Below are positions 39,822 through 60,215 of a stretch of DNA of 64,000 bases, in pieces. The stretch spans positions 1-64,000 of the IMG/VR virus record IMGVR_UViG_2660237931_000002. One strand, written 5' to 3'. Below the pieces are notes generated by a model. The model ran no database searches and was not told where the DNA came from. It saw only the letters and a list, made by a program, of their open reading frames with translations. Source of the DNA: an uncultured virus (IMG/VR IMGVR_UViG_2660237931_000002) (Duplodnaviria > Heunggongvirae > Uroviricota > Caudoviricetes). Made by a program: the position numbers and the translations under genes. The stretch's first letter is position 1. Each line of letters starts with the position of its first letter.

Positions 39822-39974
39822 CCAAAACCATATTTCTGAATCTACAGCCCCGCTTATGCGGGGCTTTTTATTGGGGTGAATATGGCATCAAGTTCACCCA
39901 AGTTCACCCTGGCATCATCCCTGTAACACAAAACGGTGTTAACGACTGCGTTATCACTAACTTCGGAAAAAGTT

Positions 39975-41328: not shown

Positions 41329-41672
41329 TCCCGCTACCAACAGGCACCAAAATCTGGCTGGTTGCCGGTATTACCGATATGAGAAACGGCTTCAACGGGC
41401 TGGCTGCAAAAGTGCAGACGGCGCTGAAAGACGAACCGATGTCCGGCCATGTCTTCATCTTCCGGGGCCGCAGCGGCAGTCAGGTTAAACTTCTGTGGTC
41501 CACCGGCGACGGGCTGTGCCTGCTGACCAAACGGCTGGAGCGCGGGCGCTTCGCCTGGCCGTCAGCTCGCGATGGCAAAGTGTTCCTGACCCCGGCGCAG
41601 CTGGCAATGCTGCTGGAAGGCATCGACTGGCGACAGCCGAAGCGGTTGCTGACCTCCCTGACCATGCTGTAG
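41325..41672 (+). CDS. tnpB: IS66 TnpB accessory protein
   Basis: TDMRNGFNGL..KRLERGRFAWP. Confidence 0.93.
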   Translation: MIPLPTGTKIWLVAGITDMRNGFNGLAAKVQTALKDEPMSGHVFIFRGRSGSQVKLLWSTGDGLCLLTKRLERGRFAWPSARDGKVFLTPAQLAMLLEGIDWRQPKRLLTSLTML

Positions 41673-43730: not shown

Positions 43731-44165
43731 ATGGCCGGAGGAATTCGATCGTCCGGTGGTGGCCGAAAACCCACTTTACCCACCGGGCAAAAAAGCAAAT
43801 TAACACGTATTGCGCCTCCTGCTGAGTTAATGGGGGAGGCGGCAATAAGAATGTGGAAGACGCAAAGCAAAATACTCATCGACCGAGGGGTGTTTGAGCT
43901 GGAGGACGCACCTTTGTTGCTGGCTTACTGCAATGCTTTTCATCTGATGCTCGAAGCCGAAAAAATGCTGGCCAGCGGACTGACCTCAGAAAGTGAAATG
44001 GGGGGGCTGAAAAAACACCCTGCAGTTAATGTCCGGAATGACTCGGTTTCCCAGCTTGCCCGCCTGGGCTCTCTGTTGGGGTTAGATCCGCTCAGTCGTC
44101 TTCGCATGACCAGCGGACAAAAGGATCCGGACGATGACGGGAATGAATTCGATGAGTTTGACTGA
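43731..44165 (+). CDS. terS: Terminase small subunit (P27 family)
   Basis: PP..L...A...W, L..YC, KKHPA, LGLDP.SR. Confidence 0.92.
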
Positions 44166-44812
44166 TGGCAACCTATCCGAACGTCAATGCAGCGAACCAG
44201 TATGCGCGGGATATCGTTGGCGGGAAGATTCTGGCGTGTCAGTTAACGATACTTGCCTGTCAGCGACATCTGGACGACCTCGAACGAGCAAAGGATCCCC
44301 ACTGGCCCTACCGCTTCGATAAAAACAAAGCAGAACGATTTCTTCGTTTTGCCCAGAAAATGCCTCATACCTCAGGGGAATGGGCCCGGCGTAAACTCCG
44401 GATTGAATTTGAAGCCTGGCAGAAGTTCGCTCTTGGCGTACCGTTTGGATGGGTACACAAGAAGACAGGCCTGCGTCGTTTCTCTGAAATCTATATCGAG
44501 GTGCCCAGAAAGAACGGGAAATCCGCTATTGCCGCTGCTGTAGGAAATTATATGTTTTGTGCAGATGGCGAGCATGGTGCAGAAGTCTATTGCGGCGCCA
44601 CGACTGAAAAACAGGCATGGAAGGTATTTTCTCCGGCGCTGCAAATGGTGAAAAAGCTGCCGGCATTGCGGCAAAAATTCTCGATAAAACCCTGGGCAAA
44701 AAAAATGACGCGCCCTGACGGTTCGGTTTTTGCGCCTGTGATCGGTGACCCGGGGGATGGTGATTCGCCATCATGCGCCATCATTGATGAATATCACGAG
44801 CATACAACATAG
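44165..44812 (+). pseudogene. terL: Terminase large subunit, 5' part, cut at Walker B by satellite
   Basis: VPRKNGKS Walker [12 protein letters not shown] then TAG supplied by the satellite. Confidence 0.95.
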
Positions 44813-44926: not shown

Positions 44927-44949
44927 CTGTGTATTGCAGTGTGTATTGC
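44927..44949 (+). promoter_or_regulatory. Putative satellite integrase arm sites (left)
   Basis: CTGTGTATTGCAGTGTGTATTGC; near-identical copy at 61538. Confidence 0.75.
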
Positions 44950-44974: not shown

Positions 44975-46210
44975 ATGGCTGCGGAAAACAAACTTAGTGA
45001 CAGGCAACTAAAGGCGCTACAGGGTAAATCGCAGGATAAGCAGCGTCTGTTCTCCGATGGTCGGGGAATGTCGGTCAGGGTGAGTAAGAATGGTGCTGTG
45101 AGCTTTGTTATGTTCTACCGATTGGGCGGCAGGGAAACATCTCCGGTTTGGTTGACGTTGGGAAAGTACCCTGACATGTCATTGAAATTGGCTCGGGAAA
45201 AACGTGATGAATGCAGAACGTGGTTAGCGGAAGGGATTGACCCGCGTCACCGTATCGGCTTAATCACAGAAGAATCACAAAGACCGGTCACCGTAAAAGA
45301 TGCACTTAAGTATTGGCTGGAGTATTACGCCAAACCTAAGCGCAGAACTTGGGAGGTCTGCGAACAACGTTTTGCCCGTTATATTTATGGTCGCCTGGGT
45401 GACGTGCCCCTAACTCTTTGTAATGCAGCAATGTGGGTAAAGTGTTTTGATGAGGTGAGAAAAACCGCTCCAGTAGCTGCCGGGCATACATTTCGAGATG
45501 TGAAGCAGGCACTCAAGTTTTGCCGGGTACGCCGTTATGCTACTTCCAACGAACTGGAGGATTTCACCGTTATGGATATGGGTGAAAGGGCGAAAAAAAG
45601 GGATCGTGTACTTACTGCTGATGAAGTGCGGGACGTTTGGTATTGGGCAAATACTGAGGAAAATAATTCAAAATTATCTCCTGTTAACCGGGTGACGCTT
45701 GTCATTTTAATGGTATTTGGATGTCGCGGACGTGAATTGCGAGAGTCACTCTGGAATGAATGGGATTTTAAAGAGTGGATTTGGACAGTGCCCAAAGAAC
45801 ACAGTAAGAATGGGCGCGAAATTATCCGCCCAATCCCCCCGCAAATCCGTCAATGGCTGGTAAATCTTCGTGCAATTGCAGAGGAGGAGGGCACAGAGCG
45901 CCTACTTAATGGTGAATTTGCAAAACAGACAGTTATGAGCACCGTAGGTAGCCGTTTTTGGCGTAAGTTCCGGCATGAAAAATCATGGTGTCTGCATGAC
46001 CTTCGCCGGGTTCTTGCCACCAATCTAAATGACATGGGGGTTGATCCTCATGTTGTCGAACAGCTCTTGGGGCATACGCTACCGGGGGTTATGGGAATTT
46101 ATAATCGTAGCCAATATCTGGCGGCAAAACTTGATGCTTTGACGAGATGGGTAGACTACCTGAATTCGTTGATCCGTTCTGATGCTAAAGAGGGAAGTCC
46201 CAATGTATAA
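44975..46210 (+). CDS. int: Satellite tyrosine integrase (P4-like arm-binding domain)
   Basis: DGRGM..RV, LTLGKYPD.SL..AR, FGCRG.E, HDLRR, LLGH, Tyr in GIYNRS. Confidence 0.95.
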   Translation: MAAENKLSDRQLKALQGKSQDKQRLFSDGRGMSVRVSKNGAVSFVMFYRLGGRETSPVWLTLGKYPDMSLKLAREKRDECRTWLAEGIDPRHRIGLITEESQRPVTVKDALKYWLEYYAKPKRRTWEVCEQRFARYIYGRLGDVPLTLCNAAMWVKCFDEVRKTAPVAAGHTFRDVKQALKFCRVRRYATSNELEDFTVMDMGERAKKRDRVLTADEVRDVWYWANTEENNSKLSPVNRVTLVILMVFGCRGRELRESLWNEWDFKEWIWTVPKEHSKNGREIIRPIPPQIRQWLVNLRAIAEEEGTERLLNGEFAKQTVMSTVGSRFWRKFRHEKSWCLHDLRRVLATNLNDMGVDPHVVEQLLGHTLPGVMGIYNRSQYLAAKLDALTRWVDYLNSLIRSDAKEGSPNV

Positions 46211-46421
46211 ATTCATGAGTAAAGCAGAACTTGAACTGATACCAGATCTGGAACGCGTTATCCGAGAACCGGAATGTTTTTGGATGACTGGTCTGCCAAA
46301 ATCTACTCGTGCTTTTATGGAGAAAAAAGGACAGTTTCCAAAGCATCTGGTGCTGGGCCCTAAAATCTGTGCCTGGCGGCTTTCTGAAGTGCAAGAATGG
46401 ATAAAGACCAGAGCACAATAA
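46203..46421 (+). CDS. alpA: AlpA-family regulator/RDF 1
   Basis: RVIREPEC..TGL..ST....K.GQFPK...LG....AWRLSEV.EW. Confidence 0.88.
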   Translation: MYKFMSKAELELIPDLERVIREPECFWMTGLPKSTRAFMEKKGQFPKHLVLGPKICAWRLSEVQEWIKTRAQ

Positions 46422-46482
46422 ACTGACACTTTTCAAACCAGACCCGCTTATTCAGGCGGGTTTTTTTATAGGATTTTTGCTA

Positions 46483-46722
46483 ATGAAAAAATTTATTGAA
46501 CCAACCCCTGAGCAACGCCGGCAGTTACTGAACGAGTATGGTGTTCCATACGACCGTATTGTTCGTGAGAAAGAACGTCGTGATATCACCTCTCTATGTA
46601 GATCGTCAGCGTGGGAGATGGAGCAGAATGAGGCGTACCCGCAGCGACGTAAAATTGGTAAAGCGGGGGCAGGTTGGCTTCTCAGTGATCTGCTCCACTG
46701 GCTGAGAAACCTTGATAGGTAA
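46483..46722 (+). CDS. alpA: AlpA-family regulator/RDF 2
   Basis: DRIVREKE...ITSL.RS..W.ME....P.R..IG....GWLLSD. Confidence 0.85.
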   Translation: MKKFIEPTPEQRRQLLNEYGVPYDRIVREKERRDITSLCRSSAWEMEQNEAYPQRRKIGKAGAGWLLSDLLHWLRNLDR

Positions 46723-46787
46723 ACTTCAGGCATTACAACTTCACGCTACTTTAAGGGAAAGAGGCAATCCTCAAAACAAGATTAGCC

Positions 46788-47019
46788 ATGATCAAAAATT
46801 GTAGTTGTTGATAAAAATGGTCTCGAGTACATTCCTAACATTGACCGTATAATCCGTGAGAAAGAGTGTAGGGAACTCACTACTCTTGCGAACAGTACGC
46901 ACTGGAAGCTGGGGAGGGGAGGGAAGTTCCCTAAACGGATCAAGATCGGGGCTGCAGCAGGAGCTTATCGCCTCTCTGAAGTGCAGGCCTGGATTAGAGC
47001 AGATAACTGGATAAGTTGA
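46788..47019 (+). pseudogene. AlpA-family copy 3, frameshifted right after ATG
   Basis: ATG-A-TCA.. then SKIVVVDKNGLEYIPNIDRIIREKECRELTTL..FPKRIKIG..YRLSEVQAWI. Confidence 0.75.
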
Positions 47020-47033
47020 ATAAGGAGAATTTT

Positions 47034-47864
47034 ATGACGATGTGTGTTTTTTGGAAAGATAAAGATAATAATATTCATATAGCAACTGATTCTCGGCTAA
47101 ATAATGACTCATCGGCTCTCGATCATTGTTTGAAAATATCTAGACTTAATTGTGAAATACACGAGTGCAATGATATAAGTGGTGGTGATAAGGTTTTTAT
47201 AAAAAATATTAAGCTTGCCATTTCTTTCTGTGGCGGGTTTGTTAGTGCTTACACGATTAAAGAGAGTTTAACTGAAATACTAAATAAAATGGTCCTTGTT
47301 CCTGACTCGTCTAATATTTCAATGGATTTGATAACTGATGTGGCCTTGACGGTTTATGAGAAAGTAATAAGAGATGCAGTTCAATATTTTATCGGTAAAG
47401 TAGGAGCTTGTAATTTTTACATAGCTGGATTTTGTCCTATTTCTAATGAAGTAGAAATGTATAAGTTGGGTGTTAGAGAACATGATTCTCAGACAGGGTT
47501 TGATTGCTTCAAAGAAAAATGCTTCCAAGATACTGATTATATTATAGATGGCAGCGGTGCGGGTTTTTTAGAACAGACTGACTCATTAGATAATCATTAT
47601 CTTAAAGCGTATCGTATTAACAATCAAAAACCATTGCTAGATTTATTACTTTCTGTAATTGAAGATGAAGGTTGTGCTTCTGTTGGTGGGGCTATACAAT
47701 ACGCAAAATGTGAACATGATAATATCATTATACATGCAATGTATGATCATAAAAATGGCGCCGTGAGATATATGCGTGGTGGTGTTGATATTAATGAGTT
47801 AATTGGTGATTATGCTGCGCGTGGAGTGGTATTTGAAACAAATATGATTGGGAAATTAAGATAA
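47034..47864 (+). CDS. Proteasome beta-subunit/HslV-like Ntn threonine protease
   Basis: AAGGAG RBS, M-T start, DSR, Lys33 (mature numbering), GSG, SVGG. Confidence 0.75.
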   Translation: MTMCVFWKDKDNNIHIATDSRLNNDSSALDHCLKISRLNCEIHECNDISGGDKVFIKNIKLAISFCGGFVSAYTIKESLTEILNKMVLVPDSSNISMDLITDVALTVYEKVIRDAVQYFIGKVGACNFYIAGFCPISNEVEMYKLGVREHDSQTGFDCFKEKCFQDTDYIIDGSGAGFLEQTDSLDNHYLKAYRINNQKPLLDLLLSVIEDEGCASVGGAIQYAKCEHDNIIIHAMYDHKNGAVRYMRGGVDINELIGDYAARGVVFETNMIGKLR

Positions 47865-47865
47865 A

Positions 47866-48405
47866 ATGAAAGATATAGATGGTGTTCATAAACTTTTGGA
47901 GGTGATGAAACCTCACATGAGCAGTATTGAGAAACGTTTTGCAGAAATGAATGATATGTTTCTTGGTCTTATGAATCAACCTCACGATAATATTGGAAGG
48001 GTTTTGAAATGCCATCTTATAATTGAGCACTTTTTGACTGGTTTTCTGCATAATTATTATAAAATTGAAAGGCTTGATAATCTCAAGTTGCGTTTTGCTC
48101 AGAAAGTGGAAATTATCCCTAGAGCCGGTGAAAGTGCTTCTTTTGTTAGGCCGGGGATCATCCAATTAAATAAAATTAGAAACAAATTTAGCCATGACTT
48201 AAGTTCTAGCATCCAAAAACATGATATTTCTGCAATTTATGAAGTGCTAACTATAGCAAGAAGAAAAAGCACATTCGATGATCCGATAGAAGCAATAGAA
48301 GCATTCACACCAATTGCATGCGCTTTTCTTTCTTTACCGCCACCAGAGTTGCAAAAAGTTTTCATAGAGGCATTCACATCAATCTCAACCTACGATCCTG
48401 AATAA
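47866..48405 (+). CDS. HEPN-like (MtlR-type) protein
   Basis: HLIIE..L, F.QK, LNKIRNKFSH (R-x4-H). Confidence 0.7.
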   Translation: MKDIDGVHKLLEVMKPHMSSIEKRFAEMNDMFLGLMNQPHDNIGRVLKCHLIIEHFLTGFLHNYYKIERLDNLKLRFAQKVEIIPRAGESASFVRPGIIQLNKIRNKFSHDLSSSIQKHDISAIYEVLTIARRKSTFDDPIEAIEAFTPIACAFLSLPPPELQKVFIEAFTSISTYDPE

Positions 48406-48571
48406 TTCCTAAAATAGATAATTATCTATCTTTGTGCTCCCGGCAGTGTTACCAGCACTAGCCGGGTTTCTGATCAAACCGTTACTTGAGATAACAATTA
48501 CTGCTACTCAACAGTCTATCCACACTCACCCTCAATCATGCTGGTGGTTCATTAACATACGAACACTTGGA

Positions 48572-48877
48572 TTACTTTCTCTGGTGACGCTGCAATTGTT
48601 CTTTCGCTAGGGTGGTCATGGTCTGGGCATTACTGACTACTTGCTCTCCGATATCGCCAATGAGGGCCAGTGTTTCAAGTGCTTTGTTAAGAGTGAGTTG
48701 CACATTCTCGGGGCCGCTTGAAGCAGTCTGCCGTCTGGCTATTTCGCCACGTAAGGCAGAAACGATAAACCCGGCATTGCTTTCGCCATCCCGCTTAACT
48801 AACTCCATGCTTTCCATCACATCGTGTGGAATGCGCACTGTGGTCATTTGTGATTTTGCATTTTTATATACGGACAT
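48572..48877 (-). CDS. YlcI/YnfO-like ribbon-helix-helix regulator
   Basis: NAKSQ..TVRIPHDV......K.DGES..GFIV.A.RGEIARRQ. Confidence 0.78.
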   Translation of the reverse strand: MSVYKNAKSQMTTVRIPHDVMESMELVKRDGESNAGFIVSALRGEIARRQTASSGPENVQLTLNKALETLALIGDIGEQVVSNAQTMTTLAKEQLQRHQRK

Positions 48878-48899
48878 AGTGAATTACCTGATTGAATCG

Positions 48900-48996
48900 T
48901 GTATCTCACTATACATATAAATGAGATACAAAAAAACTTGAATTGTATCTCATGCAATATTATGGTGTATCTCACCAGGTGGTGTCCTGTATCTCA
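48900..48996. promoter_or_regulatory. Array of five TGTATCTCA boxes at exact 22-bp period
   Basis: Starts 48900, 48922 (inverted), 48944, 48966, 48988. Confidence 0.85.
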
Positions 48997-49087
48997 GTTT
49001 TTAGGCCACTTAGTAAAAACAGCGAAGCCCGGAAGTGCGCGAACACTAACCGGGCTTCTGACCAAACCGTTAGTTGAGGTAACAGAT

Positions 49088-49366
49088 ATGGCTGGTAAAC
49101 AGCATACCCAAACTCACCCCAAATTTACATGGCTATTCTTGGCTACCCGAGAAGCGTTTTCTGAATGTTCACCTGTAGTCCTCAGATGTGATGCAGATTC
49201 GGAGGAGGATGCTCGAGCAATCTTCCCTGAGTGGCATCTAACCTTTGCAGCAAAAATCCGTACTGAAAGTCCCTATTCGTATACTTGGACTGACAAAAAT
49301 CGAGCAACTCTCTGGTCAATTATGGGAGGCGAAATCAACCTTCCTCTGGAGGCTCGAAATGTCTAA
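49088..49366 (+). CDS. Icd-like host cell division inhibitor (P4/PICI ash region)
   Basis: QHTQTHPKFTWLF..A.SE..AR......L.FAAKIR. Confidence 0.75.
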   Translation: MAGKQHTQTHPKFTWLFLATREAFSECSPVVLRCDADSEEDARAIFPEWHLTFAAKIRTESPYSYTWTDKNRATLWSIMGGEINLPLEARNV

Positions 49367-49613
49367 GCCACAACTGCGCTATATCGCTGAACTAAAAAAT
49401 CTTGAAGAGCATGAGCAGGAATTGCGTACTGCCGCGCTTAGTGCTGCCCAAGCAAAAATCGTGGCGACTATGCTGGTGTGTTATCCCAATGCAATGGAGG
49501 ACGGTGAAATTACCGCGATTGGCCAGTTATTTGAGTCCCTGGCCACTAACCTCGATAGTTTCTTGAAAGCAGAATGCGAGCGTTTTGAAAGTTGTTCGGA
49601 GGTTCAGTCATGA
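49359..49613 (+). CDS. Hypothetical satellite protein
   Basis: GGAGG RBS, overlapping operon. Confidence 0.65.
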   Translation: MSKPQLRYIAELKNLEEHEQELRTAALSAAQAKIVATMLVCYPNAMEDGEITAIGQLFESLATNLDSFLKAECERFESCSEVQS

Positions 49614-49978
49614 TTAGCAACGTCAAATTCAATGAACTGGAAAAACGCTTTGATCTGCTGGTGGAGAAAGTCAACGTTCTTGAAGAAAAAGTAAGAGCGC
49701 TGACTGATAGTCAGGGCGGTGAAATCCCACCCGGTATGACTCCTGTCGCTACGCTGGCGGCTGAGTATGGCATTTCTACCAAAAAAGCGGAGGAACTGGC
49801 GAAAAATACGGGCGTTATGTTGGTTAAGCTGAAATCAGGAGGCTTTATTGTGCCTGATGAGAAATTCAGGGAAGCGGCCCGACTTGTTCTCCGTAGCGCA
49901 AAACGAAAATACGGTTCGGCCTACTGGTTTCATCCGCTGATGGGCAAATTCCAAATGAGCGGAGGGATCCCGAAGTGA
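49610..49978 (+). CDS. Hypothetical satellite protein upstream of primase
   Basis: GGAGG RBS, ATGA overlap, coiled-coil N-term. Confidence 0.7.
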   Translation: MISNVKFNELEKRFDLLVEKVNVLEEKVRALTDSQGGEIPPGMTPVATLAAEYGISTKKAEELAKNTGVMLVKLKSGGFIVPDEKFREAARLVLRSAKRKYGSAYWFHPLMGKFQMSGGIPK

Positions 49979-51777
49979 AAAATGCACCTAACGTAAAGGC
50001 GCTGCCGAAAGACAAGTTTACAGAAGCGATTATTTTCGCGGGTGCCGACGCGTGGAGTCATGCCAAAGGCTGGGAAGAGGGGTTAGGAAAGCAGATCGCG
50101 GAAGATACCACGCCTCCTGTTTATCTTGGCCCGCGGCAACTGGAGGAACTGGATAACCTGCGCATTATCGATGATGGCCGCCGAGCTGCACGGGTGTACC
50201 TAGCTGGCGATATCGAGACGTCGATGATTAGTGCCATTGGTGCCAAGCTGGCACAGGCTGGGGTACAGGAGGCAAAACTTTATAAGGGTATTCCCGATAC
50301 TCATCCGGAGGACTGGCGAGATCACCTTAATCGGATTAGGGAAGGGAAAAGCACAGTAGTAAATCTGCCAGTGACGAAAAGAGAACCAGCGCATGATGAA
50401 GTTAGCCCGGCTCTTAATCAGATGGGGGCCAGCCAGCGCGGGCAAGTGCTGCTGGCCCATTACGATGGAGACCTGGCTATTCATGCTGATTCGGACATGG
50501 TTCACCACTATAACGGTGTGATCTGGAATCCACTCCCGGATAAAGAGCTGCAACGGGCAATGGCGCAGATTTACATTGATGCTGAGGTAGCCTATTCGCA
50601 GAACGCCATCAAATCGGCGGTGGAAACCATGAAGCTGAGTCTGCCGGTGATGGGCGTAACAGCCCGCAACCTCATTGGCTTCAGCAACGGCGTATTTGAT
50701 ACCCGGACGGGGCAGTTCAGGGAGCACAGCAAAACCGACTGGTTGTTGATTGCCAGTGAACTGCCATTCAGTCCACCAGCTGAGGGGGAGACACTGGCCA
50801 GCCATGCGCCGAACTTCTGGAAGTGGTTACGCCGTTCCGTGGCCTACAACGACCGCAAAACAGACCGTGTGCTGGCGGCGCTATTTATGGTGCTGGCGAA
50901 CCGGTACGACTGGCAGCTGTTCCTTGAGGTTACGGGCCCCGGCGGTAGCGGTAAAAGCGTGATGTCTGAAATATGCACCATGCTGGCAGGCAGAGCCAAT
51001 ACTGTGGCCGCCAGTATGAAAAATCTGGAGGACGCGAGGGACAGGGCGCTGGTGGTCGGCTACTCACTGATCATCATGCCGGATATGACCCGTTACGCTG
51101 GTGATGGCGCCGGGATTAAGGCCATTACCGGCGGCGATAAGGTGTCAATCGACCCGAAACATAAAGCACCATATTCAACCCGTATTCCTGCTGTGGTACT
51201 GGCCGTAAACAACAACGCCATGACCTTCAGCGACCGCAGTGGGGGTATATCGCGCCGGCGAGTTATATTCAACTTTACGGAAGTTGTTCCGGAAAACGAG
51301 CGCGATACGATGCTGGCTGAAAAGATAGAAGGTGAGCTGGCCGTCATCATTCGCCACCTGCTGATCCGCTTTTCCAGTCAGGACGAAGCCAAACAGCTGC
51401 TGCATGAACAGCAGAAGTCAGAAGAGGCACTGGCTATCAAGCGTGAAGGTGATTCGCTGGTGGATTTCTGCGGTTATCTGATGGCGTCGGTAGTGTGTGA
51501 TGGGATGTTTATCGGCAATGCGGAGATTGTGCCATTCAGCCCGCGCAAATATCTGTATCACGCCTATCTGGCATACATGCGGGCCAATGGCCTGAGTAAG
51601 CCAGTCTCTCTGATGCGGTTTGGTACCGATATGCCAGGCGCAATGGCCGAGTACGGGAAGAAGTACGAAAAGCGGAAAACCAAGCACGGTATCAGGTCAA
51701 ACGTTACGCTACACGACGACTCAGACGACTGGATGCCGTCATGTAACAATAATTCTGAAAGTGCTGGGCTAGAGTAA
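49975..51777 (+). CDS. P4/D5-type primase-helicase (SF3)
   Basis: GFSNGVFD, GPGGSGKS, IKAITGGD, GISRRRVIF. Confidence 0.92.
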   Translation: MKNAPNVKALPKDKFTEAIIFAGADAWSHAKGWEEGLGKQIAEDTTPPVYLGPRQLEELDNLRIIDDGRRAARVYLAGDIETSMISAIGAKLAQAGVQEAKLYKGIPDTHPEDWRDHLNRIREGKSTVVNLPVTKREPAHDEVSPALNQMGASQRGQVLLAHYDGDLAIHADSDMVHHYNGVIWNPLPDKELQRAMAQIYIDAEVAYSQNAIKSAVETMKLSLPVMGVTARNLIGFSNGVFDTRTGQFREHSKTDWLLIASELPFSPPAEGETLASHAPNFWKWLRRSVAYNDRKTDRVLAALFMVLANRYDWQLFLEVTGPGGSGKSVMSEICTMLAGRANTVAASMKNLEDARDRALVVGYSLIIMPDMTRYAGDGAGIKAITGGDKVSIDPKHKAPYSTRIPAVVLAVNNNAMTFSDRSGGISRRRVIFNFTEVVPENERDTMLAEKIEGELAVIIRHLLIRFSSQDEAKQLLHEQQKSEEALAIKREGDSLVDFCGYLMASVVCDGMFIGNAEIVPFSPRKYLYHAYLAYMRANGLSKPVSLMRFGTDMPGAMAEYGKKYEKRKTKHGIRSNVTLHDDSDDWMPSCNNNSESAGLE

Positions 51778-51789
51778 AGTTATAGGTAA

Positions 51790-52020
51790 AGTGTTCACCA
51801 GTATTCACCATGTTAAAAAGTCTATTTATTACATGATGTTAAGGGGTGAGCACTTATTTATGAAGTATTCACCAAGTATTCACCTGTTCACCTTTTGATT
51901 GTTTTTTAGCCTAAAGGGTGAAGGAGATGGTGAACACTTGTGAACACTTAAAAGTGATGTGTTCACCACTTAATAAATTGAATTTATTGATAAAAAGTGT
52001 AAGAGTGAACAGGTGAACCC
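51790..52020. repeat. Satellite origin with P4-like TGTTCACC iterons
   Basis: About a dozen (T/G)TTCACC / GTGAAC-type copies in both orientations, AT-rich, directly after primase. Confidence 0.8.
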
Positions 52021-52061
52021 TTAAACATATATTTTAAATTTTAAAGCTTAGGAGTTGTGAC

Positions 52062-52340
52062 ATGCCAATCACATACGAAGAACGTAGGGAGCACATGGAG
52101 ATGTATGGTTTAACCAGTCTTGAAACGATGCACATTGCTGAATATCGGAAAGCACTTGAGGAGGAGGCATTCTTCTGGGATGATCCACACGGGTTTGTTA
52201 TGCATACTCTTTCTGGCGAAAGGCTCGTTACAAATGTAGAACAACTGGATGCTTTGCTAATGCATCTTGAAAGTTATAGGGCTAATTTGCCTGAGTCGTC
52301 GAGATATATGTTTAAACAGAATCAAATACGTAGTATTTAA
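52062..52340 (+). CDS. Hypothetical protein
   Basis: AGGAG RBS, 92 aa. Confidence 0.65.
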   Translation: MPITYEERREHMEMYGLTSLETMHIAEYRKALEEEAFFWDDPHGFVMHTLSGERLVTNVEQLDALLMHLESYRANLPESSRYMFKQNQIRSI

Positions 52341-52466
52341 GTGAGAAAAGATTATAATAAAAAAAATTTTAAGGCAGGATGGCGTGGTTAATTATTTTTA
52401 AGATTAAATGTTTATTTAATATTTGACCGCGGTGGTGGATTGTTGTAAATAAAACTGAGGTGATTA

Positions 52467-53369: not shown

Positions 53370-53859
53370 GGTTGAGTTTTCTGGAGTGACTGATGCGCTT
53401 AATTTTTGTTTGATGGTGCATCAGTTAAGTGACTTTGTTTTAATAATGTTGTTGGGAAGGTTGCCTTCTGAAATAAATGTACGTTTTTTGCTGTTTGATT
53501 CAAGAGAAAAATTGCGGTGATGTATGAATTTATACTGTGATTTTTCAATATATTATTGAGATTTTTTCTTACCCCACTATCCTTATCGTTGATTTCGGGG
53601 TTTATAAAAGTCAATGATAGACTTCATTAATTGTAAATTATTTGTTCATTATCTTTCATTGCTGTTCATCATCAAATACGGTTATTTACTTCATTGTTTC
53701 AATGTTTATCTTAGGGAGTGGCACTCAGACGTGAGCCGCCGCTGGCCGTTTAACCAAACTGTGCGAGATAGCCGGAGAGAGTCCTAAATAGGTTAAATGG
53801 CCATTTTCTTTTCTGCGCTGGTTTCACGTCTCAACGTTAATTGTTACGGAAACCACTCC

Positions 53860-55026
53860 ATGAAGAAATTACTCGAATTACGCCAGCAAAAAGCTGCCCT
53901 CAAAACGCAGATGCGATCCATGCTGGAGAAAGCCGACAATGAAAAGCGCAGCCTGAATGATGAAGAGGGGAAACAGTTTGACGAACTTCGCGCCCGTGCT
54001 GATACGCTTGAAGTGGAAATTACCCGCCTTGAAGCCGTTGCCAACGATGAGCGCAATCTGCCTGGTACTTCCGTAGAAGGTGAGCCAGTAAACAACGACG
54101 AACTGCGGCACTACATCATGACCGGTGATACCCGTTCTCTCTCCACGCTGGTGCAGGCTGATGGCGGCTATACCGTTATCCCTGAACTGGATAAAGAGAT
54201 CATGCGGCAGTTGCAGGATGATAGCGTGATGCGATCTATCGCGACAGTGAAGACAACCAAAACCAACGAATACCAGAAGCTGGTATCTGTGGGCGGTGCT
54301 GCCGTTAAGCATGGGGCAGAAGGTGAAGCGCGTGCAGAAACTACCACACCGAGAATGGAACGTGTCGATATCAAACTCAGCCCGATCTATGCATACCCGA
54401 AAACCACTCAGGAGATCCTCGATTTTTCCGAGGTGGATATTCTGGGTTGGTTATCTTCTGAAATCTCCGACACCTTCAGCGCTACTGAAGAAAATGATTT
54501 TGTTAACGGCGATGGTGTGAAGAAGGCTAAAGGCTTTCTGGCTTATGACCGTGTGTCCACCAGCGATAAAACCCGCCCGTTCGGTACGCTGGAGAAAATG
54601 GAAACTGCTGCTGTTAACTCAGATGGTTTGATCGACCTGCTATACAAGCTGAAAGCAAAATACCGCAAGAACGCCGTATGGGTGATGAACTCGAATACTG
54701 CGGCCACGCTTCAGAAGCTGAAAAACGATAACGGGGACTATATCTGGCGCGATCGTCTGGTCGCTGACTCTCCTGATACGCTGCTGGGCCGTCCGGTTCA
54801 GTATCTGGAAACTATGCCCGATGCGGCTCCGGGAGAAGCATTTCTGGCGGTAGGCGATTTTAAGCGTGGTTACTTCATTGTCGATCACACCACAGGCGTG
54901 CGCACCCGTCCTGACAATATCACCGAACCGGGTTTCTACAAGGTGCATACCGATAAATACCTGGGCGGCGGCGTGGTGGACTCCTGCGCCATCAAGGTGC
55001 TTGAGCTTTCCGGCTCCGGTTCCTGA
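53860..55026 (+). CDS. Satellite major capsid protein (HK97 fold with delta domain)
   Basis: Coiled-coil N-term, DGGYTV.PE, GDG..K.KG, LLGRPV, GDFKRGY. Confidence 0.95.
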   Translation: MKKLLELRQQKAALKTQMRSMLEKADNEKRSLNDEEGKQFDELRARADTLEVEITRLEAVANDERNLPGTSVEGEPVNNDELRHYIMTGDTRSLSTLVQADGGYTVIPELDKEIMRQLQDDSVMRSIATVKTTKTNEYQKLVSVGGAAVKHGAEGEARAETTTPRMERVDIKLSPIYAYPKTTQEILDFSEVDILGWLSSEISDTFSATEENDFVNGDGVKKAKGFLAYDRVSTSDKTRPFGTLEKMETAAVNSDGLIDLLYKLKAKYRKNAVWVMNSNTAATLQKLKNDNGDYIWRDRLVADSPDTLLGRPVQYLETMPDAAPGEAFLAVGDFKRGYFIVDHTTGVRTRPDNITEPGFYKVHTDKYLGGGVVDSCAIKVLELSGSGS

Positions 55027-55076
55027 TCTGACGTTTAAGGGGCTTCGGCTCCTTTTGCCCTCTGTGGAGTCCAGTA

Positions 55077-55637
55077 ATGAAAACAATCGATTTTGAAATC
55101 CGAACCTCTGAGCTGAGCGCCAGCAACAAAAAGCTGGTGGGCTATGCCGTGCGCTGGAACAGCCTGTCAGAAGTTATCTGGGATGAGTTCCGCGAGCAGT
55201 TTGTACCGGGGGCGTTTAAAGACAGCCTGGCATCCGGTAGCGATGTGCGCGCACTGTACGAGCATAACTATACCCAACTGCTGGGGCGCACTAAATCCGG
55301 CACGCTGGTGCTGTCCGAGGACGATACCGGGCTGCGCTTTGAGCTTACCCCACCGAATACCCAGCTTGGGAATGATGTGCTGGAGCTGGTGGAACGTGGG
55401 GATATTTCCGGCATGAGTTTTGGTTTCCGTGCGCTGAAAGAGGCATGGGATATCGGCCAGTCTCCGTACCTCCGTACTGTAATAGCTGCCGACCTGCGGG
55501 AAATCACAGTTACGTCTATGCCTGCTTATCCTGAATCTGGTGTGGAAATCGCGCACCGTTCGCTTTTCTCCCAACATCCTGAACTGCGTCGCGCTGGCGA
55601 TAACCGTCGCCGCTGGGCTGAATTAGCGGGGCTTTGA
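55077..55637 (+). CDS. Prohead protease (HK97 family)
   Basis: GYA, F.E.F.PGAF, LYEHN, GMSFGF, EIT.T..PAYP. Confidence 0.93.
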   Translation: MKTIDFEIRTSELSASNKKLVGYAVRWNSLSEVIWDEFREQFVPGAFKDSLASGSDVRALYEHNYTQLLGRTKSGTLVLSEDDTGLRFELTPPNTQLGNDVLELVERGDISGMSFGFRALKEAWDIGQSPYLRTVIAADLREITVTSMPAYPESGVEIAHRSLFSQHPELRRAGDNRRRWAELAGL

Positions 55638-55638
55638 T

Positions 55639-56874
55639 ATGTGGAATATCTGGCCGTTTGGCCGTAAGTCTGAACCCTCCGAGCAGCGCAGCATGACCAT
55701 TGATGAGTTTCTGGCGATGGCAGGGATTCCAAATACCGTATCAGGCGAGTACGTGTCTGCGGGTACTGCGGAATCTCTGCCGGCGGTGATGAATGCTGTT
55801 TCCGTTATCAGTGAAGCTGTGGCGACAATGCCCTGTTACCTCTATCGGGTACGAAATGATAAAGGACGAGAGGCGCGGGAGTGGCTGAGCAATCACCCGG
55901 TGGATTTTCTCCTGAACGAACAGCCTAACGACTGCCAGACGCCTTACCAGTTTAAACGCACGATGATGCGCCACTGCCTGCTGAATGGTAACGCCTATGC
56001 GGTGATCCAGTGGGGCCGTGACGGCCAGCCGCAATCCCTGCATCCGTATGCGCCGGGGGCGGTTGTTCCCGAACGTATTGGCCAGCATAAGTACAAATAC
56101 ACCGTTACTGAACCGTTTACGGGGGCTGTGCACACCTACTTGCAGGAAGAGATGCTGCACCTGCGTTACTCCACCGACGATGGCTTTCTGGGGCGTTCGC
56201 CGATCACCGTCTGCCGTGAGGCGTTGGGGCTGGGCCTCGCTCAGCAGCGCCACGGTGCCAGCATTATGAAAGATGGCATGATGGCGGCTGGCGTGGTCAC
56301 TACTGCTGAATGGCTCGACAGCTTAAAGGGCAAACAAGCTCTGGACGCACTGGAACGCTACAAAGGTGCCAGAAACGCCGGGAAAACGCCGATCCTTGAA
56401 GGTGGCATGGACTATAAGCAGCTTGGCATGAGCAATCAGGATGCTGAGTGGCTGGCCTCCCGTCGCTTCACCATTGAAGATATTGCCCGCATGTTTAACG
56501 TTTCTCCTATCTTTCTGCAGGAATACAGCAACAGCACCTACAGCAATTTTAGTGAGGCGAGCCGCGCCTTTCTTACCATGACAATGCGCCCGTGGCTGGC
56601 GAACTTTGAGCAGCAGATTAAATCCGCGTTGCTGGTGGCATCGCCTGTACCCGGAATCCGTTATCAGGTGGAGTTCGACTCTGCCGATCTTCTTCGAGCC
56701 ACTCCAACCGAACGTTACGCAACTTATGAGCGCGGTATCAAGAACGGGATCATGAACCCGAACGAAGCCCGCGAACGGGAAGGGATGCCACCGCGTGAAG
56801 GTGGCGACGAATACAGTCAGGCATGGAAGCAGGAAGTGAAGGTCAGTAAGGACAACAAGGACGGTGACGAATGA
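55639..56874 (+). CDS. Portal protein (HK97 family)
   Basis: LL..QPN..QT...F, LNGNAY, G.SP, IARMFNV, NPNEARERE. Confidence 0.95.
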   Translation: MWNIWPFGRKSEPSEQRSMTIDEFLAMAGIPNTVSGEYVSAGTAESLPAVMNAVSVISEAVATMPCYLYRVRNDKGREAREWLSNHPVDFLLNEQPNDCQTPYQFKRTMMRHCLLNGNAYAVIQWGRDGQPQSLHPYAPGAVVPERIGQHKYKYTVTEPFTGAVHTYLQEEMLHLRYSTDDGFLGRSPITVCREALGLGLAQQRHGASIMKDGMMAAGVVTTAEWLDSLKGKQALDALERYKGARNAGKTPILEGGMDYKQLGMSNQDAEWLASRRFTIEDIARMFNVSPIFLQEYSNSTYSNFSEASRAFLTMTMRPWLANFEQQIKSALLVASPVPGIRYQVEFDSADLLRATPTERYATYERGIKNGIMNPNEAREREGMPPREGGDEYSQAWKQEVKVSKDNKDGDE

Positions 56875-57209
56875 GAGCCGGAAAGATGAAACGCCGCGTC
56901 ACTTTTCAGAAGTCAGAATCTCACCGTGATCAGATGGGGCAGGTTATCTCTGTGTGGTCTGACCTTGCCACCGTCTGGGCTGAAATCCGCGCTATAAGTG
57001 GGCGTGAGCGTATGTCTTCAGGGGGGCTCTACTCCGAAGCCACTGTACGAATCTGGACGCGCTACCGCGACGATATCACCACCGCAAACCGCATTTTGTA
57101 CCGCTCGCCAAATGTCCGGGGGCAGGTTTACGGCATTGTGGCCGTCATTCCTGATGTGGATCACACCCGGCTTGAGCTGCTGTGCAAGGGAGGCATTTTC
57201 AATGAATGA
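56871..57209 (+). CDS. Head closure / tail adaptor
   Basis: MRAGKM.RRVTFQ, VWAEIRAISGRE. Confidence 0.9.
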   Translation: MRAGKMKRRVTFQKSESHRDQMGQVISVWSDLATVWAEIRAISGRERMSSGGLYSEATVRIWTRYRDDITTANRILYRSPNVRGQVYGIVAVIPDVDHTRLELLCKGGIFNE

Positions 57210-57495
57210 GTTAATTGGTCTGGAAGAAGCAAAGCTGCATTGCCGTATTGATGATGATTATGAAGACACGCTGATACAGGCGTACATCGATGCGGCGCTG
57301 GAGGTTTGCCAGAAGCATATCGGCAAGCGGTTTGATAACGGGCTGGAGTTTACGCCAGCTATCAAGATTGGCTGTCTGATGTACGTATCTCAGTTGTACG
57401 AGTACCGCACGATGATTGGTGATACTGACGCCAAAGAGATACCGATGGCTGTCTCTGCGTTGTGGTCTGTCTATCGTGATGTGGGGGTGTACTGA
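57202..57495 (+). CDS. Head-tail connector
   Basis: LEEAKLHCRID...ED.LI..YI.AA, LYEYR. Confidence 0.9.
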   Translation: MNELIGLEEAKLHCRIDDDYEDTLIQAYIDAALEVCQKHIGKRFDNGLEFTPAIKIGCLMYVSQLYEYRTMIGDTDAKEIPMAVSALWSVYRDVGVY

Positions 57496-57938
57496 TGCCG
57501 TGGCAACCACTACACCGATGCACTGAGCCGGGATGTAATAAAAGGGTGAAGTCTGGCAAGTGTGACGAGCATAAGCGGGATGCCCGCCGACAAAGCGACA
57601 GCCGAAGAGGTACGCGAACAGAGCGTGGTTACTCCAACCGCTGGGGCGAATACCGTCGTCATTTTCTGAAAGCTAATCCGCTGTGTGTCCATTGTCTTAA
57701 GGCTGACGTCTATACATCGGCAACTATCGTCGATCACATCATCCCTATCGAGGGTGAAGCCGATGTGCTGTTCTGGCCTGCCAGTAATCACCAGTCGTTA
57801 TGTGCTGCCTGTCATGGACGGAAGACAACCACAACAGACCCGGTGACGAAGCAGCAGCGTAAAGCCGGTAAGTTCCGTGAGCAGGAAGAAGCAGCATGTC
57901 ATCGCACCGACTGGATCTATGAGGCAAACAATGACTGA
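57495..57938 (+). CDS. HNH endonuclease (packaging)
   Basis: RGYS.RW, PLCVHC, VDHIIP, NHQSLC..CH..KT. Confidence 0.92.
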   Translation: MPWQPLHRCTEPGCNKRVKSGKCDEHKRDARRQSDSRRGTRTERGYSNRWGEYRRHFLKANPLCVHCLKADVYTSATIVDHIIPIEGEADVLFWPASNHQSLCAACHGRKTTTTDPVTKQQRKAGKFREQEEAACHRTDWIYEANND

Positions 57939-58083
57939 GCAGGAACAGCAGCGGCTGATTAGTGGGCTGATAAAGCAGCGTGAGTCATGGCAACCAGCCA
58001 GACAGAGGGCGTTTAAGAAGCCCGCAGCAAAGCGCATGAGCCCGCGTGACCGGGAGCTTATGGAATGCTTTCGCAACCGCTGA
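57931..58083 (+). CDS. Small hypothetical protein
   Basis: GAGG RBS, 50 aa between HNH and cos. Confidence 0.55.
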   Translation: MTEQEQQRLISGLIKQRESWQPARQRAFKKPAAKRMSPRDRELMECFRNR

Positions 58084-58094
58084 CAGGCCGAATG

Positions 58095-58180
58095 GACGGG
58101 GTGGGGGAGGTTTTCAGGACAAGCCCCTCTCAGCGAGGAACCACCTGCCCCCTCAAATTTTTGCGCTCGGTAATTTTTTT
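58095..58180 (+). other. Probable satellite cos region
   Basis: GGGGTGGGGGAGG run followed by T-rich tracts just before terS; differs from helper cos. Confidence 0.55.
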
Positions 58181-58213
58181 GAAAATAAATCGCGATGGAA
58201 ACGAGAAATTTTT

Positions 58214-58570
58214 ATGGCAAGACCACCAAAACCGCCAGCTTACCTTGATGAGCTAGCCGCGCAGCAGTGGAAAGCAAAGGCGAAGCAACTGGCGGAGCGC
58301 GGGGATCTGACTCCCGCCGACTGGAATAACCTTGAGCTTTTTTGCGTCAACTATTCGTTGTACCGCAAAGCCGTGGAAGACCTTGCCAGCCGTGGGTTCA
58401 GCATTATTAACAGCCAGGGCGGCGAGAGCCGGAATCCGGCGCTGAGTGCAAAGGCCGATGCTGAAAAAATCATGATTAAAATGTCGTCGCTGCTGGGCTT
58501 TGATCCGGTAAGCCGCCGTCGTAACCCTGTAGAAATGGAAGAGGAAGACGAGCTTGACCGTCTGGGATGA
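58214..58570 (+). CDS. terS: Satellite terminase small subunit (P27 family)
   Basis: PKPPAYL...A..QW, NPAL, LGFDPVSR. Confidence 0.92.
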   Translation: MARPPKPPAYLDELAAQQWKAKAKQLAERGDLTPADWNNLELFCVNYSLYRKAVEDLASRGFSIINSQGGESRNPALSAKADAEKIMIKMSSLLGFDPVSRRRNPVEMEEEDELDRLG

Positions 58571-60215
58571 GTACGCAAACGCGATAAAAACGGGCGAAAT
58601 TCCGGCCTGTAAGCGCGTAAAACAGGCCGTGGAAAGGTACTTTTCAGACCTGAGTGACCCCCGTTATGAGTTCGATACGGCGACCGTAGAGCGGTTTATT
58701 GCGTTCTCCCGGCTCTGTCCTCACGTCAAAGGACCGCTGCGCGGCCAGCCTATTGAACTGGAGCCGTGGCAACAATTTGCCTTTGCTAACCTGCTGGGAT
58801 TTAAAGTCAGGGAATCAGGCCGCCGGAAGTACAGCAGCGCCTTTATTGAAGTGCCGCGCAAGAATGCCAAATCTACCGTAGCCGCCATGCTGGCTAACTG
58901 GTTTCTGGTAATGGAGAAGGGCCAGCAGGATATCTATACGGCGGCGGTAAGCCGGGATCAGGCCCGTATTGTGTTCGACGATGCCCGTCAGATGTGCCTG
59001 CTGTCAAAACCGCTGAAAAAGCGCGTCAGTATTCAGGCGCACAAGGTCATTTACCCAAAGAGCAACAGCCTGTTAAAGCCGCTGGCGGCAAAAGCGGCCA
59101 CCATTGAAGGGACTAACCCCAGCCTGGCGATTGTCGATGAGTACCACCTTCACCCGGATAACGGCGTTTATTCCGCGCTTGAGCTGGGTATGGGCGCACG
59201 ACCGGAGGCGATTTTGTTCGCTATTACGACCGCCGGAAGTAATGTTGTCTCAGCCTGCAAACAGCATTATGACTACTGCTGCCAGATTCTGGCCGGGGAT
59301 GAGAGTAACGATTCGCTGTTTGTACTGATCTACGAGCTGGACGACGAAAGCGAGGTTGAGCAGCCTGAAATGTGGATCAAGGCTAACCCTAACCTTGATG
59401 TGTCCGTTGACGCGGCGAAACTGGAGTCCACCATCCAGAAAGCGCGGGGCATACCGTCGCAGTGGGTGGAAATGCTGACCAAACGTTTCAATATCTGGTG
59501 TCAGGGCTCCACTCCGTGGATGGGTGCCGGTGCATGGGACGCCTGTGCGCTCGACTATACCGAAGAAGATCTTGCAGGGATGGAGTGCTACGCAGGATTT
59601 GACCTGTCCTCAACCAGCGATATCACCAGCGTGAGCTACGCTTTCCCGTTCGACAGGGAGATCTGCCTGCTGACCCGCCATTATCTGCCGGAAGCGCAGT
59701 TGCTTAACGTCGCCAACAAAAACCGCGCTATCTACCGCCAGTGGGTGAAAGCGGGCTGGATACGCACCACACCCGGCGACTGTATCGACTATGACCGCAT
59801 TCGTGACGATATCCTGTGCGATGCTGAAATCTTCAATATCAGGCTGGTGGGCTTCGATACCTGGAACGCCACGCATCTGCGTACTCAGCTTCAGGGAGCA
59901 GGTCTCGATGTGGAGCCGTTTCCTCAAACCTATCTCAAGTTCAGCCCGGTAGCGAAATCCTTTGAGGTATTCGTCAACCGCAGGGTTGTGCGTCATCGTG
60001 GCGATCCTGTTCTCTCCTGGGCAATGGGTAATGTGGTTATGGAGTCTGACGCCAACGCCAATATCAAGCCTAACAAGAAGAAATCCGCTAACAAGATCGA
60101 CCCTGCTGTATCAGCGTTGATGGCGTTCGGTACTTTCCAGTCTGAGCACGAATATTTTGCTTTTGATATGAGTGACAGTCACAAAGAACGATTGGCGACA
60201 TTTAATGGTATTTGA
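58554..60215 (+). CDS. terL: Satellite terminase large subunit
   Basis: VPRKNAKST, AIVDEYH, ITTAG, GFDLS..SD, KIDPAV. Confidence 0.95.
   Translation: MTVWDEYANAIKTGEIPACKRVKQAVERYFSDLSDPRYEFDTATVERFIAFSRLCPHVKGPLRGQPIELEPWQQFAFANLLGFKVRESGRRKYSSAFIEVPRKNAKSTVAAMLANWFLVMEKGQQDIYTAAVSRDQARIVFDDARQMCLLSKPLKKRVSIQAHKVIYPKSNSLLKPLAAKAATIEGTNPSLAIVDEYHLHPDNGVYSALELGMGARPEAILFAITTAGSNVVSACKQHYDYCCQILAGDESNDSLFVLIYELDDESEVEQPEMWIKANPNLDVSVDAAKLESTIQKARGIPSQWVEMLTKRFNIWCQGSTPWMGAGAWDACALDYTEEDLAGMECYAGFDLSSTSDITSVSYAFPFDREICLLTRHYLPEAQLLNVANKNRAIYRQWVKAGWIRTTPGDCIDYDRIRDDILCDAEIFNIRLVGFDTWNATHLRTQLQGAGLDVEPFPQTYLKFSPVAKSFEVFVNRRVVRHRGDPVLSWAMGNVVMESDANANIKPNKKKSANKIDPAVSALMAFGTFQSEHEYFAFDMSDSHKERLATFNGI

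Follow-up and report, generated by a model that had tools for sequence, protein, structure and literature searches.

The window analysed here is a stretch of 64,000 nucleotides (positions 1 to 64,000) of a provirus record of 93,166 bases in IMG/VR (IMGVR_UViG_2660237931_000002). It contains a phage satellite which, by its gene set and gene order, is a capsid-forming phage-inducible chromosomal island (cfPICI). We considered two adjacent genes of this satellite, gene 1 and gene 2, situated between the int and alpA genes on one side and the primase, that is, the replication genes, on the other. The coordinates of all features are given in Table 1. Gene 1 encodes a candidate threonine protease of the proteasome type, and gene 2 encodes a putative RNase with a HEPN fold. 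A first-pass annotation, made from the sequence without database searches, had described them as two AT-rich genes 1 bp apart in the cargo slot of a satellite. Coordinates and composition agree with this description, and the satellite proves to be of the capsid-forming type, not a classical PICI. The GC content is 0.334 at positions 47001-48000 and 0.401 at positions 48001-49000, compared with 0.46-0.55 in the flanking regions.

The open reading frame (ORF) of gene 1, counted from the first TTG codon, occupies positions 47016..47864 of the plus strand. Conservation places the start at the ATG at 47034, which is matched by the homologous ORFs in loci L046, L047 and L049, all of them beginning with MTMC. 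It follows a Shine-Dalgarno box, so the Met-Thr start behind a strong ribosome-binding site, as first annotated, holds. The stop codon of gene 1 and the start codon of gene 2 are separated by one nucleotide, a layout typical of translational coupling. A scan of positions 46400-49300 yielded 14 promoter-like sites against 8.3 expected, none of them convincing, and no terminator was called 3' of gene 2. A possible weak terminator hairpin was spotted there by eye and is tentative.

The product of gene 1 belongs to phrog_16034, listed in PHROG with function unknown (E 1.9e-68). The motifs DSR, Lys33, GSG and SVGG, in which the first-pass annotation saw the layout of the N-terminal nucleophile (Ntn) proteases proteasome beta, HslV and Anbu, are all present and are conserved in 21 close homologues. 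Absolutely conserved positions in these homologues are M1, T2, M3, C4, V5, D19, S20, R21, K34, F65-C-G-G68, G173-S-G175 and V217-G-G219, and S216 is nearly so. The numbering includes the initiator methionine; D19 and K34 become D18 and K33 after its removal. In a wider alignment of 85 sequences M1, D19, K34 and G173 are invariant, and T2, S20, R21, D30, G67, G132, C134, V217, G218, G219 and Q222 nearly invariant. The predicted catalytic set consists of Thr2, Asp19 and Lys34, complemented by Gly67, G173-S-G and S216-V-G-G.

The Ntn layout is supported both by a structure model and by sequence profiles. In the model, the protein adopts the four-layer alpha-beta-beta-alpha Ntn fold of the proteasome-beta/Anbu type, and residue 2 superposes on Thr1. 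An hhalign comparison of the gene 1 family with 22 Anbu sequences scores 85.8% (E 5.3e-6, 199 columns), and the Thr, the Asp and the Lys (D18 and K33 in Anbu), the glycine segment (AGN in Anbu) and SVGG are all aligned. In its fold and its full set of catalytic residues, gene 1 thus matches the threonine Ntn hydrolases of the proteasome type, but it is not an Anbu, HslV or 20S subunit. These hydrolases form MEROPS T1, which comprises the 20S beta subunits, HslV, Anbu and BPH.

Methionine aminopeptidase is expected to remove a methionine that precedes threonine; for gene 1 this is a prediction. The N-termini of 147 family members, among the matches listed (P0139-P0285), begin with MT in 128 cases (119 of them MTL), with MS in two and with VTL in two, and most of the others belong to fragments or N-terminally extended proteins. 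A cysteine nucleophile, with translation starting at M3 (MCV...), was considered and rejected. Indeed, position 4 is occupied by C, V, L, S, T, A or G in the wide family, and Thr2 is nearly invariant; the lack of conservation of Cys4 argues against cysteine and for threonine as the nucleophile.

A word-indexed search with gene 1 yielded 22 clusters of 222-279 amino acids. All named clusters are enterobacterial, from Klebsiella, Rahnella, Pectobacterium, Serratia, Yersinia, Enterobacter and Providencia. When 1.84 billion representatives were searched with a profile, 339 proteins passed a threshold of E<=0.001; 209 of them remained at E<=1e-10, and 21 at E<=1e-30. No fused forms were found among longer proteins (484-2000 amino acids), although this evidence is weak. 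Searches with tblastn gave no matches in 50,697 phage records and one match in 72,556 plasmids. The family is rare: in three samples of 401 genomes each, it was found in 4, 6 (two strong matches) and 4 genomes.

Gene 2 matches phrog_5483, again of unknown function (E 2.1e-13). A search with this gene yielded 116 clusters, and a genome scan yielded 40 loci from Pseudomonadota, Acidobacteriota, Bacteroidota, Verrucomicrobiota, Planctomycetota, Cyanobacteria and others. Twelve positions are absolutely conserved in all 40 aligned relatives: G44, L47, H50, L51, E54, L75, F77, K80, N102, R105, N106 and H110. They include the putative RNase motif R105-N-K-F-S-H110 (R-x4-H) within the region LNKIRNKFSH, as well as E54 of helix 2 within HLIIE. 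Thus the annotation of this region as an R-x4-H motif of an MtlR-type HEPN protein stands, as the motif is invariant and the fold is supported. In a Foldseek comparison with gene 2, HepS and YggD take the first rows. In a search of 48,161 chains, HEPN folds occupy the top of the list, and HEPN-MNT structures are also present. Gene 2 is a HEPN helical bundle with an MtlR/YggD-like fold and the R-x4-6-H signature.

The only solved protein family reached by the gene 2 profile at the sequence level is HepS. The profile matches the chains of HepS (9oij) with E 1.8e-6 and of HepS-H105A with E 1.9e-4 over profile positions 46-139, and R105 and H110 of gene 2 are aligned with R100 and H105 of HepS. 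Gene 2 is thus a remote homologue of HepS, with aligned catalytic residues. HepS (STM14_3211; PDB 9oij, 9oik) comes from the Gifsy-1 prophage of Salmonella Typhimurium (Sargen et al., Nature 2026, PMC13043305). That report describes it as a solo abortive-infection protein, a self-sufficient sensor and effector with no co-occurring partner gene. According to the same report, the HepS tetramer is inactive at rest, is activated by a siphophage tail-tip protein and cuts the anticodon loops of tRNA; the substitution H105A abolishes defence, and overexpression is not toxic. None of six NCBI accessions of gene 2 relatives occurs in the 12 searched supplementary files of the HepS paper, which places gene 2 in a branch more distant than the homologues given in that study.

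Gene 2 follows gene 1 in the window (L041) and in seven other loci from the gene 1 alignment (L042, L046, L047, L048, L049, L051, L052). Of these, L042 and L048 are the same Rahnella element met twice, and L046 and L047 are near-identical. The junction was measured in seven paired records, and in all of them the genes overlap by their stop and start codons or are separated by a single nucleotide. The distance is +1 in the window, -4 (ATGA) in L046, L047 and L048, and -1 (TAATG) in L049, L051 and L052. The paired proteins are 58-72% (gene 1) and 70-78% (gene 2) identical to those of the window. Pairing is also inferred for gene 1 homologues with 58% (P0007/P0031) and 49% (P0009/P0305) identity, as the contigs of both partners have equal lengths, 16360 and 62263, respectively. 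All paired loci fall in one enterobacterial clade of gene 1 and one of gene 2, and thus the genes were joined in a single event and then retained. In the viral contig L049 (1438-1949), the gene 2 homologue begins at the TAATG overlap and changes frame after approximately 20 codons, owing either to decay into a frameshifted pseudogene or to faulty assembly.

Outside this clade both genes are solo in the contexts examined. A sister clade of gene 1 (approximately 41% identity) occupies the same satellite slot without gene 2 (L050, L053), and a copy of gene 1 with 40.6% identity is found alone on an IncF plasmid of Enterobacter cloacae. Two ORFs of 146 and 166 amino acids following gene 1 in L050 were considered as other partners and rejected: they have no Pfam match and do not look protein-like, and one of them overlaps conserved satellite sequence. 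The gene 2 family at large is stand-alone, although coupled to gene 1 in the window and its clade. Among 2,625 ORFs within 6 kb on either side of the 40 gene 2 loci, the wide gene 1 profile matches only in L001, the Rahnella element, and 39 of 40 loci have no gene 1. The nearest same-strand upstream ORF of solo gene 2 was scanned in 26 of these 39 loci. Fourteen ORFs have no Pfam match, and the other twelve all belong to different families: TadE, LysR, HerA, HNH (weak), SelO, Ros/MucR, Abi_alpha, HIRAN, DUF6082 (weak), Por_Secre_tail, Asp protease and DUF2513. In four genomes with solo gene 2, no relative of gene 1 was found anywhere in the genome. A sample of 401 Enterobacterales genomes contains family 1 in four genomes, family 2 in 14, and both in one (G001); in G280 a close gene 2 (E 6.5e-68) is present and gene 1 is absent. 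The paired and solo forms of both genes have the same lengths, with no extra segments or domains. The pairing is a narrow, lineage-specific arrangement.

In the wider gene 1 family, the immediate neighbours of the distant members include a TRADD-N-associated two-transmembrane (2TM) protein, transposases, a CAP12/Pycsar-type TIR protein, a Phd antitoxin and subunits of type I restriction-modification (R-M) systems. We applied PADLOC to the regions within 8 kb on either side of eight distant loci (L079-L086) and, as a control, to eight Anbu loci of equal size (111 ORFs). L083 and L084 contain type I R-M operons in which the gene 1 relative separates hsdS from hsdR and a GmrSD-like or SIR2-like gene is also present. 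A comparable placement is that of the anticodon nuclease PrrC, which lies within a type I R-M locus. The R-M-embedded relatives retain the signature MTLC...DS...K...FAG. In L081, a type IIG R-M enzyme lies beside the gene 1 relative. In L086, AbiEi/AbiEii are directly upstream, and a cyclase and a 2TM effector of a cyclic-oligonucleotide-based antiphage signalling system (CBASS) are downstream. L080 contains a PDC-S11 candidate, and L082 an R-M control protein with PrimPol; L079 has helicase and ABC-ATPase matches only, and L085 none.

None of the eight Anbu control loci contains R-M, Abi or CBASS genes; they have generic matches only (mad3/mad8/AriA of the ABC-ATPase type, mad2, IetA, CARF_LolE_TM). 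Specific defence systems were thus found in four of eight gene 1 loci and in none of eight controls, a small sample that points one way. Matches of the mad3/mad8/AriA type were rejected as evidence of defence, as they also occur in the controls. The relatives in L083 (8003-9016, minus strand) and L084 (7847-8893, minus strand) encode 337 and 348 amino acids and come from two genomes of the phylum sample centred on G004; the companion gene in their operons is GmrSD/HEC-06-like or SIR2-like.

We favour, with moderate confidence, the reading that the cargo operon consists of two autonomous candidate anti-phage genes joined in one cfPICI operon. By analogy with HepS, the product of gene 2 would be inactive as an oligomer at rest and would become active on contact with a protein of the infecting phage, which it would bind. 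The activated protein would cut tRNA or other RNA with a composite R105/H110 site, leading to abortive infection. The initiator methionine of the gene 1 product would be removed, exposing the threonine as an N-terminal nucleophile, and the enzyme, once triggered, would hydrolyse a peptide bond in a phage or host protein. The two genes were joined once in an enterobacterial satellite lineage and, being translationally coupled since then, would be co-expressed as a double-barrelled cassette. In this reading the folds, motifs, family ranges, gene contexts and coupling are observed, and the role against phages, the two enzymatic activities, the autonomy of either gene and the loss of the methionine are proposed.

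Several observations weigh against this reading. Gene 1 has no matches in Pfam at E<=1 and none in PADLOC or NCBIfam, and gene 2 is matched by no Pfam, PADLOC or NCBIfam model. The sequence link between gene 1 and the proteasome homologues is remote, albeit consistent: the gene 1 profile finds nothing among PDB sequences at E<=10, Anbu chains included, none of the 85 family members matches the Pfam Proteasome model PF00227 at E<=0.01, and hhalign with a single HslV sequence gives a probability of 6%, which is not significant. The association of family 1 with defence islands was observed in a small sample, eight loci against eight controls, and several PADLOC matches near family 1 are to generic ATPases and helicases, seen in the controls too. 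Finally, the codon overlap kept across approximately 40% divergence could mean that the two genes need each other.

Such mutual need is at the core of a possible, though unlikely, alternative, in which the threonine protease and the HEPN RNase form one obligate machine and the protease licenses, trims or degrades the RNase. Cutting or recognition of a phage protein might license the RNase, or processing of the RNase might switch it on or off, in parallel with protease-controlled immune effectors. The retained junction in seven of seven paired records, the low GC content of both genes, the absence of any gene between them and the pairing inferred at 49% and 58% identity all point in this direction. 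On the other hand, the paired loci represent one clade of each gene and one evolutionary event; the gene 1 sister clade and the plasmid copy lack gene 2, and nearly all gene 2 loci lack gene 1. Paired gene 2 has no additional N- or C-terminal segment that could be removed, and paired gene 1 has no additional domain. The absence of a fused form among longer proteins, weak as this evidence is, points the same way, and HepS works without a partner, according to its report (PMC13043305). The first-pass annotation had proposed exactly such a system, with a protease that senses the phage or processes the RNase, and had named homologues that never co-occur as a sign against it. Homologues do co-occur in seven locus records of one enterobacterial clade, but they are solo in all other contexts examined, and with solo occurrence, uniform architecture and a self-sufficient HepS, one obligate system is not supported as stated. 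We retain the reading of two autonomous genes.

A role outside defence seems quite improbable. Here the pair would serve the satellite life cycle, with a peptidase acting on a helper or satellite protein and a regulator with the HEPN fold, or would be selfish cargo. It is consistent with the position of the pair directly behind three alpA-type regulator frames, and with the lack of any context pointing to a function for 22 subfamilies of proteasome homologues, as stated by Fuchs et al. 2021 (PMC8665760). However, R-x4-H and the Asn following the Arg are invariant in all 40 gene 2 relatives from many phyla, which would not be expected of a non-catalytic regulator. Moreover, the families also occur far from satellites, in chromosomes of Rhizobium, Acidobacteria and Bacteroidota, in R-M operons and on a plasmid, and the content of the slot varies among related satellites, L050 and L053 having gene 1 only.

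HEPN RNases are common as toxins of toxin-antitoxin pairs, and we know of no proteasome-type hydrolase among the known antitoxins. An addiction module that stabilises the satellite, in which gene 1 holds in check an RNase toxin encoded by gene 2, for instance by degrading it, is very improbable: although HEPN-MNT structures occur in the fold list and the putative toxin gene is coupled in translation to the gene that precedes it, solo relatives of gene 2 with no conserved neighbour (39 of 40 loci) indicate that the protein is not constitutively toxic, gene 1 is also found solo (L050, L053, plasmid), and overexpressed HepS was not toxic according to its report (PMC13043305).

The satellite has a tyrosine integrase gene at its left end and continues to the right through the primase-helicase to the packaging module (Table 1). 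Small conserved satellite genes are situated between gene 2 and the primase-helicase. The first-pass annotation had seen no AAA+ partner nearby, and this is true of the whole element: it contains no gene for an AAA+ unfoldase, and its sole P-loop protein is the D5-type primase-helicase. No tail, lysis or holin genes were found among the Pfam matches along 44975-60215, and Rfam and tRNA scans revealed nothing inside the element. Matches to the element were found in 670 of 5,426 complete E. coli genomes, in the primase part only and with approximately 80% identity; none covers 80% of the query, and the record is thus not from E. coli. The third AlpA-like frame (46792-47019) has no ATG, GTG or TTG start and ends with a TGA at 47017-47019, 2 nt before the Shine-Dalgarno box of gene 1; it is either a decayed duplicate or a gene using an unusual start.

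Table 1. Genes and other features of the gene pair and of the satellite element in the window
Feature	Position	Strand	Description
Gene 1	47034..47864	+	276 amino acids, proteasome-beta/Anbu-like Thr-Ntn hydrolase family, phrog_16034
Gene 2	47866..48405	+	179 amino acids, HEPN protein of HepS/MtlR type
Shine-Dalgarno box AAGGAG	47022..47027	+	6 nt 5' of the gene 1 ATG; from sequence
Stop/start junction TAAAATG, 1-nt spacer	47862..47868	+	translational-coupling layout; TAA stop of gene 1 at 47862-47864, ATG of gene 2 at 47866; from sequence
Possible weak terminator hairpin 3' of gene 2	48439..48472	+	CCCGGC, 16-nt loop, GCCGGG, TTTCTG; spotted by eye, tentative
Tyrosine integrase, left end of cfPICI	44975..46210	+	Pfam Arm-DNA-bind_3, Phage_integrase
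AlpA-type regulator frames, three	46182-46421, 46477-46722, 46792-47019	+	Pfam Phage_AlpA, E 7.6e-12, 2.9e-10, 1.1e-11 (the last for the third frame)
D5-type primase-helicase, right border of cargo/regulation region	49975..51777	+	Pfam D5_N, DUF5906, Pox_D5
Packaging module: major capsid, prohead protease, portal, head completion protein, gp6-like connector, HNH, small terminase subunit (TerS), large terminase subunit (TerL)	53797..60215	+	Pfam

A second AT-rich cargo gene of the satellite, an ORF of 300 amino acids (52467-53369, plus strand, GC approximately 0.35), is situated between the primase and the capsid gene. It has no match in Pfam, PADLOC, NCBIfam or PHROG and no sequence match in PDB. 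The ORF carries RNLHTH, an R-x4-H pattern, and the nearest named Atlas cluster, RiboL-PSP HEPN (0.88), serves only as a lead. The satellite may therefore carry another cargo gene of the HEPN type besides gene 2.

A 23-nt segment, CTGTGTATTGC(A/T)GTGTGTATTGC, is found at 44927-44949, just 5' of the integrase gene, and at 61538-61560, approximately 1.3 kb past the satellite terL; 22 of 23 bases are identical. These copies are candidate attachment or integrase-binding repeats and would bound an element of 16.6 kb. Outside them, a 215-amino acid N-terminal fragment of terL (44165-44812, plus strand) covers positions 2-134 of 178 of the ATPase model and ends with ...DEYHEHTT*. An open-ended frame at 63010-63999 (plus strand) covers ATPase positions 144-174 and the nuclease domain, and the sequence preceding it reads ...YTTMTTGMGAREQP. 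The two halves are approximately 18 kb apart and are separated by the cfPICI, an AT-rich ORF of 355 amino acids (60253-61320, minus strand) and an insertion sequence (IS) transposase (61722-62690, minus strand). Thus the cfPICI, this ORF and the IS transposase appear to disrupt the terminase of another phage-like element. The packaging module upstream comprises an HNH gene (39936-40337) and TerS (43731-44165), and between them lies an IS66-family insertion (HTH_Tnp_1 40930-41328, TnpB_IS66 41325-41672, DDE_Tnp_IS66 41722-43260; GC 0.57-0.61). Further upstream there are two copies of the small RNA STnc100 (Rfam RF02076) on the plus strand, at 36340-36525 and 36834-37013, approximately 500 nt apart; they score 70.3 and 72.8 bits, where the gathering score is 47.

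Members of the gene 1 family occur as satellite cargo, on a plasmid, within type I R-M operons and next to AbiE and CBASS, which leads to the hypothesis of an anti-phage threonine protease encoded by a gene of 0.8 kb. Its catalytic class would be new to candidate defence proteins. A bolder proposal is that the family (phrog_16034, 339 representatives) is a new class of immune enzymes, a solitary N-terminal-threonine protease acting as an anti-phage sensor or effector, here wired to a HepS-like RNase as a two-step abortive-infection switch. We regard it as distinctly unlikely; if the immune role of gene 1 were true, it would be the first role of proteasome homologues in prokaryotic immunity and the first function of an orphan proteasome-like family. 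Should the two genes be interdependent, they would make a new protease-RNase immune circuit. Gene 2, judged by its sequence, is a new distant member of the HEPN kind described in 2026. It would extend the HepS-type self-sensing HEPN nucleases to a broad branch including Pseudomonadota, Acidobacteriota, Bacteroidota, Verrucomicrobiota and others. As a cfPICI takes only tails from its helper, the presence of a relative of a tail-tip-triggered RNase raises the question of how the transfer of the satellite itself escapes abortion.

The genes int, alpA, primase-replicase, capsid, prohead protease, portal, connector, HNH, terS and terL occur in the order published for cfPICIs, whose definition, gene order and median size of 14 kb are given by de Sousa et al. 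2023 (PMC10085698). The element considered here is of similar kind in size (approximately 15-16.6 kb), but it differs in its apparent position within terL of another phage-like element and in its AT-rich cargo, which forms two regions: one with genes 1 and 2, the other with the 300-amino acid ORF.

Like Anbu, gene 1 has a threonine immediately after the initiator methionine (MTYCV...SDSRT in Rahnella Anbu and MTMCV...TDSRL in gene 1). Its Asp and Lys are at the positions of Asp17 and Lys33 of the proteasome, and G67 is the equivalent of the oxyanion Gly47. However, it is approximately 30 residues longer than Anbu and only remotely similar in sequence, which sets it outside the Anbu family. The usual operon partners of Anbu are ATP-grasp, alpha-E and transglutaminase genes; none of these genes was found in the element by Pfam. 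The two families also differ in abundance, as gene 1 relatives were found in 4 of 401 Enterobacterales genomes, and in the phylum 47 of 151 genomes contain Anbu. Gene 1 may correspond to one of the 22 new subfamilies of proteasome homologues of Fuchs, Alva and Lupas 2021, with the PMI type as a guess. For these subfamilies the paper reports neither a genomic context nor an AAA+ partner suggesting a function (PMC8665760); gene 1 likewise has no AAA+ partner.

The MtlR/YggD proteins (PDB 3brj, 3c8g, 6kcr) share the fold of gene 2, but they are regulators of sugar operons with no sequence match to it. In contrast, gene 2 retains the invariant R-N-x3-H, and its only solved relative detectable by sequence is a nuclease. 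The likeness to HepS is closer: gene 2 is also a small HEPN protein on a mobile element, its R-x4-H and the Glu of helix 2 align with those of HepS, and the family mostly has no conserved neighbour. The differences are that the similarity is remote (15-18% identity in structural alignments), that gene 2 is shorter (179 amino acids against 212 and 228 residues in the deposited HepS chains), and that it is translationally coupled to an upstream gene, whereas no such coupling was seen for HepS in its report (PMC13043305).

PADLOC-DB v2.0.0 contains no families matching gene 1, gene 2 or the 300-amino acid ORF at E<=1, and in the literature searched, which leaves most papers in subscription journals outside its coverage, no proteasome-type or Ntn enzyme was linked with HEPN or with phage defence. 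Both results agree with the initial impression that no system with this pairing had been described. Immune proteins of the protease type are known from other catalytic classes, metallo, cysteine and serine, and include Lit, the CHAT/caspase-like proteases and the Lon-like CRISPR-associated proteases. The concept that gene 1 would share with them is that of an enzyme silent until a phage cue, which then cleaves a host or partner protein.

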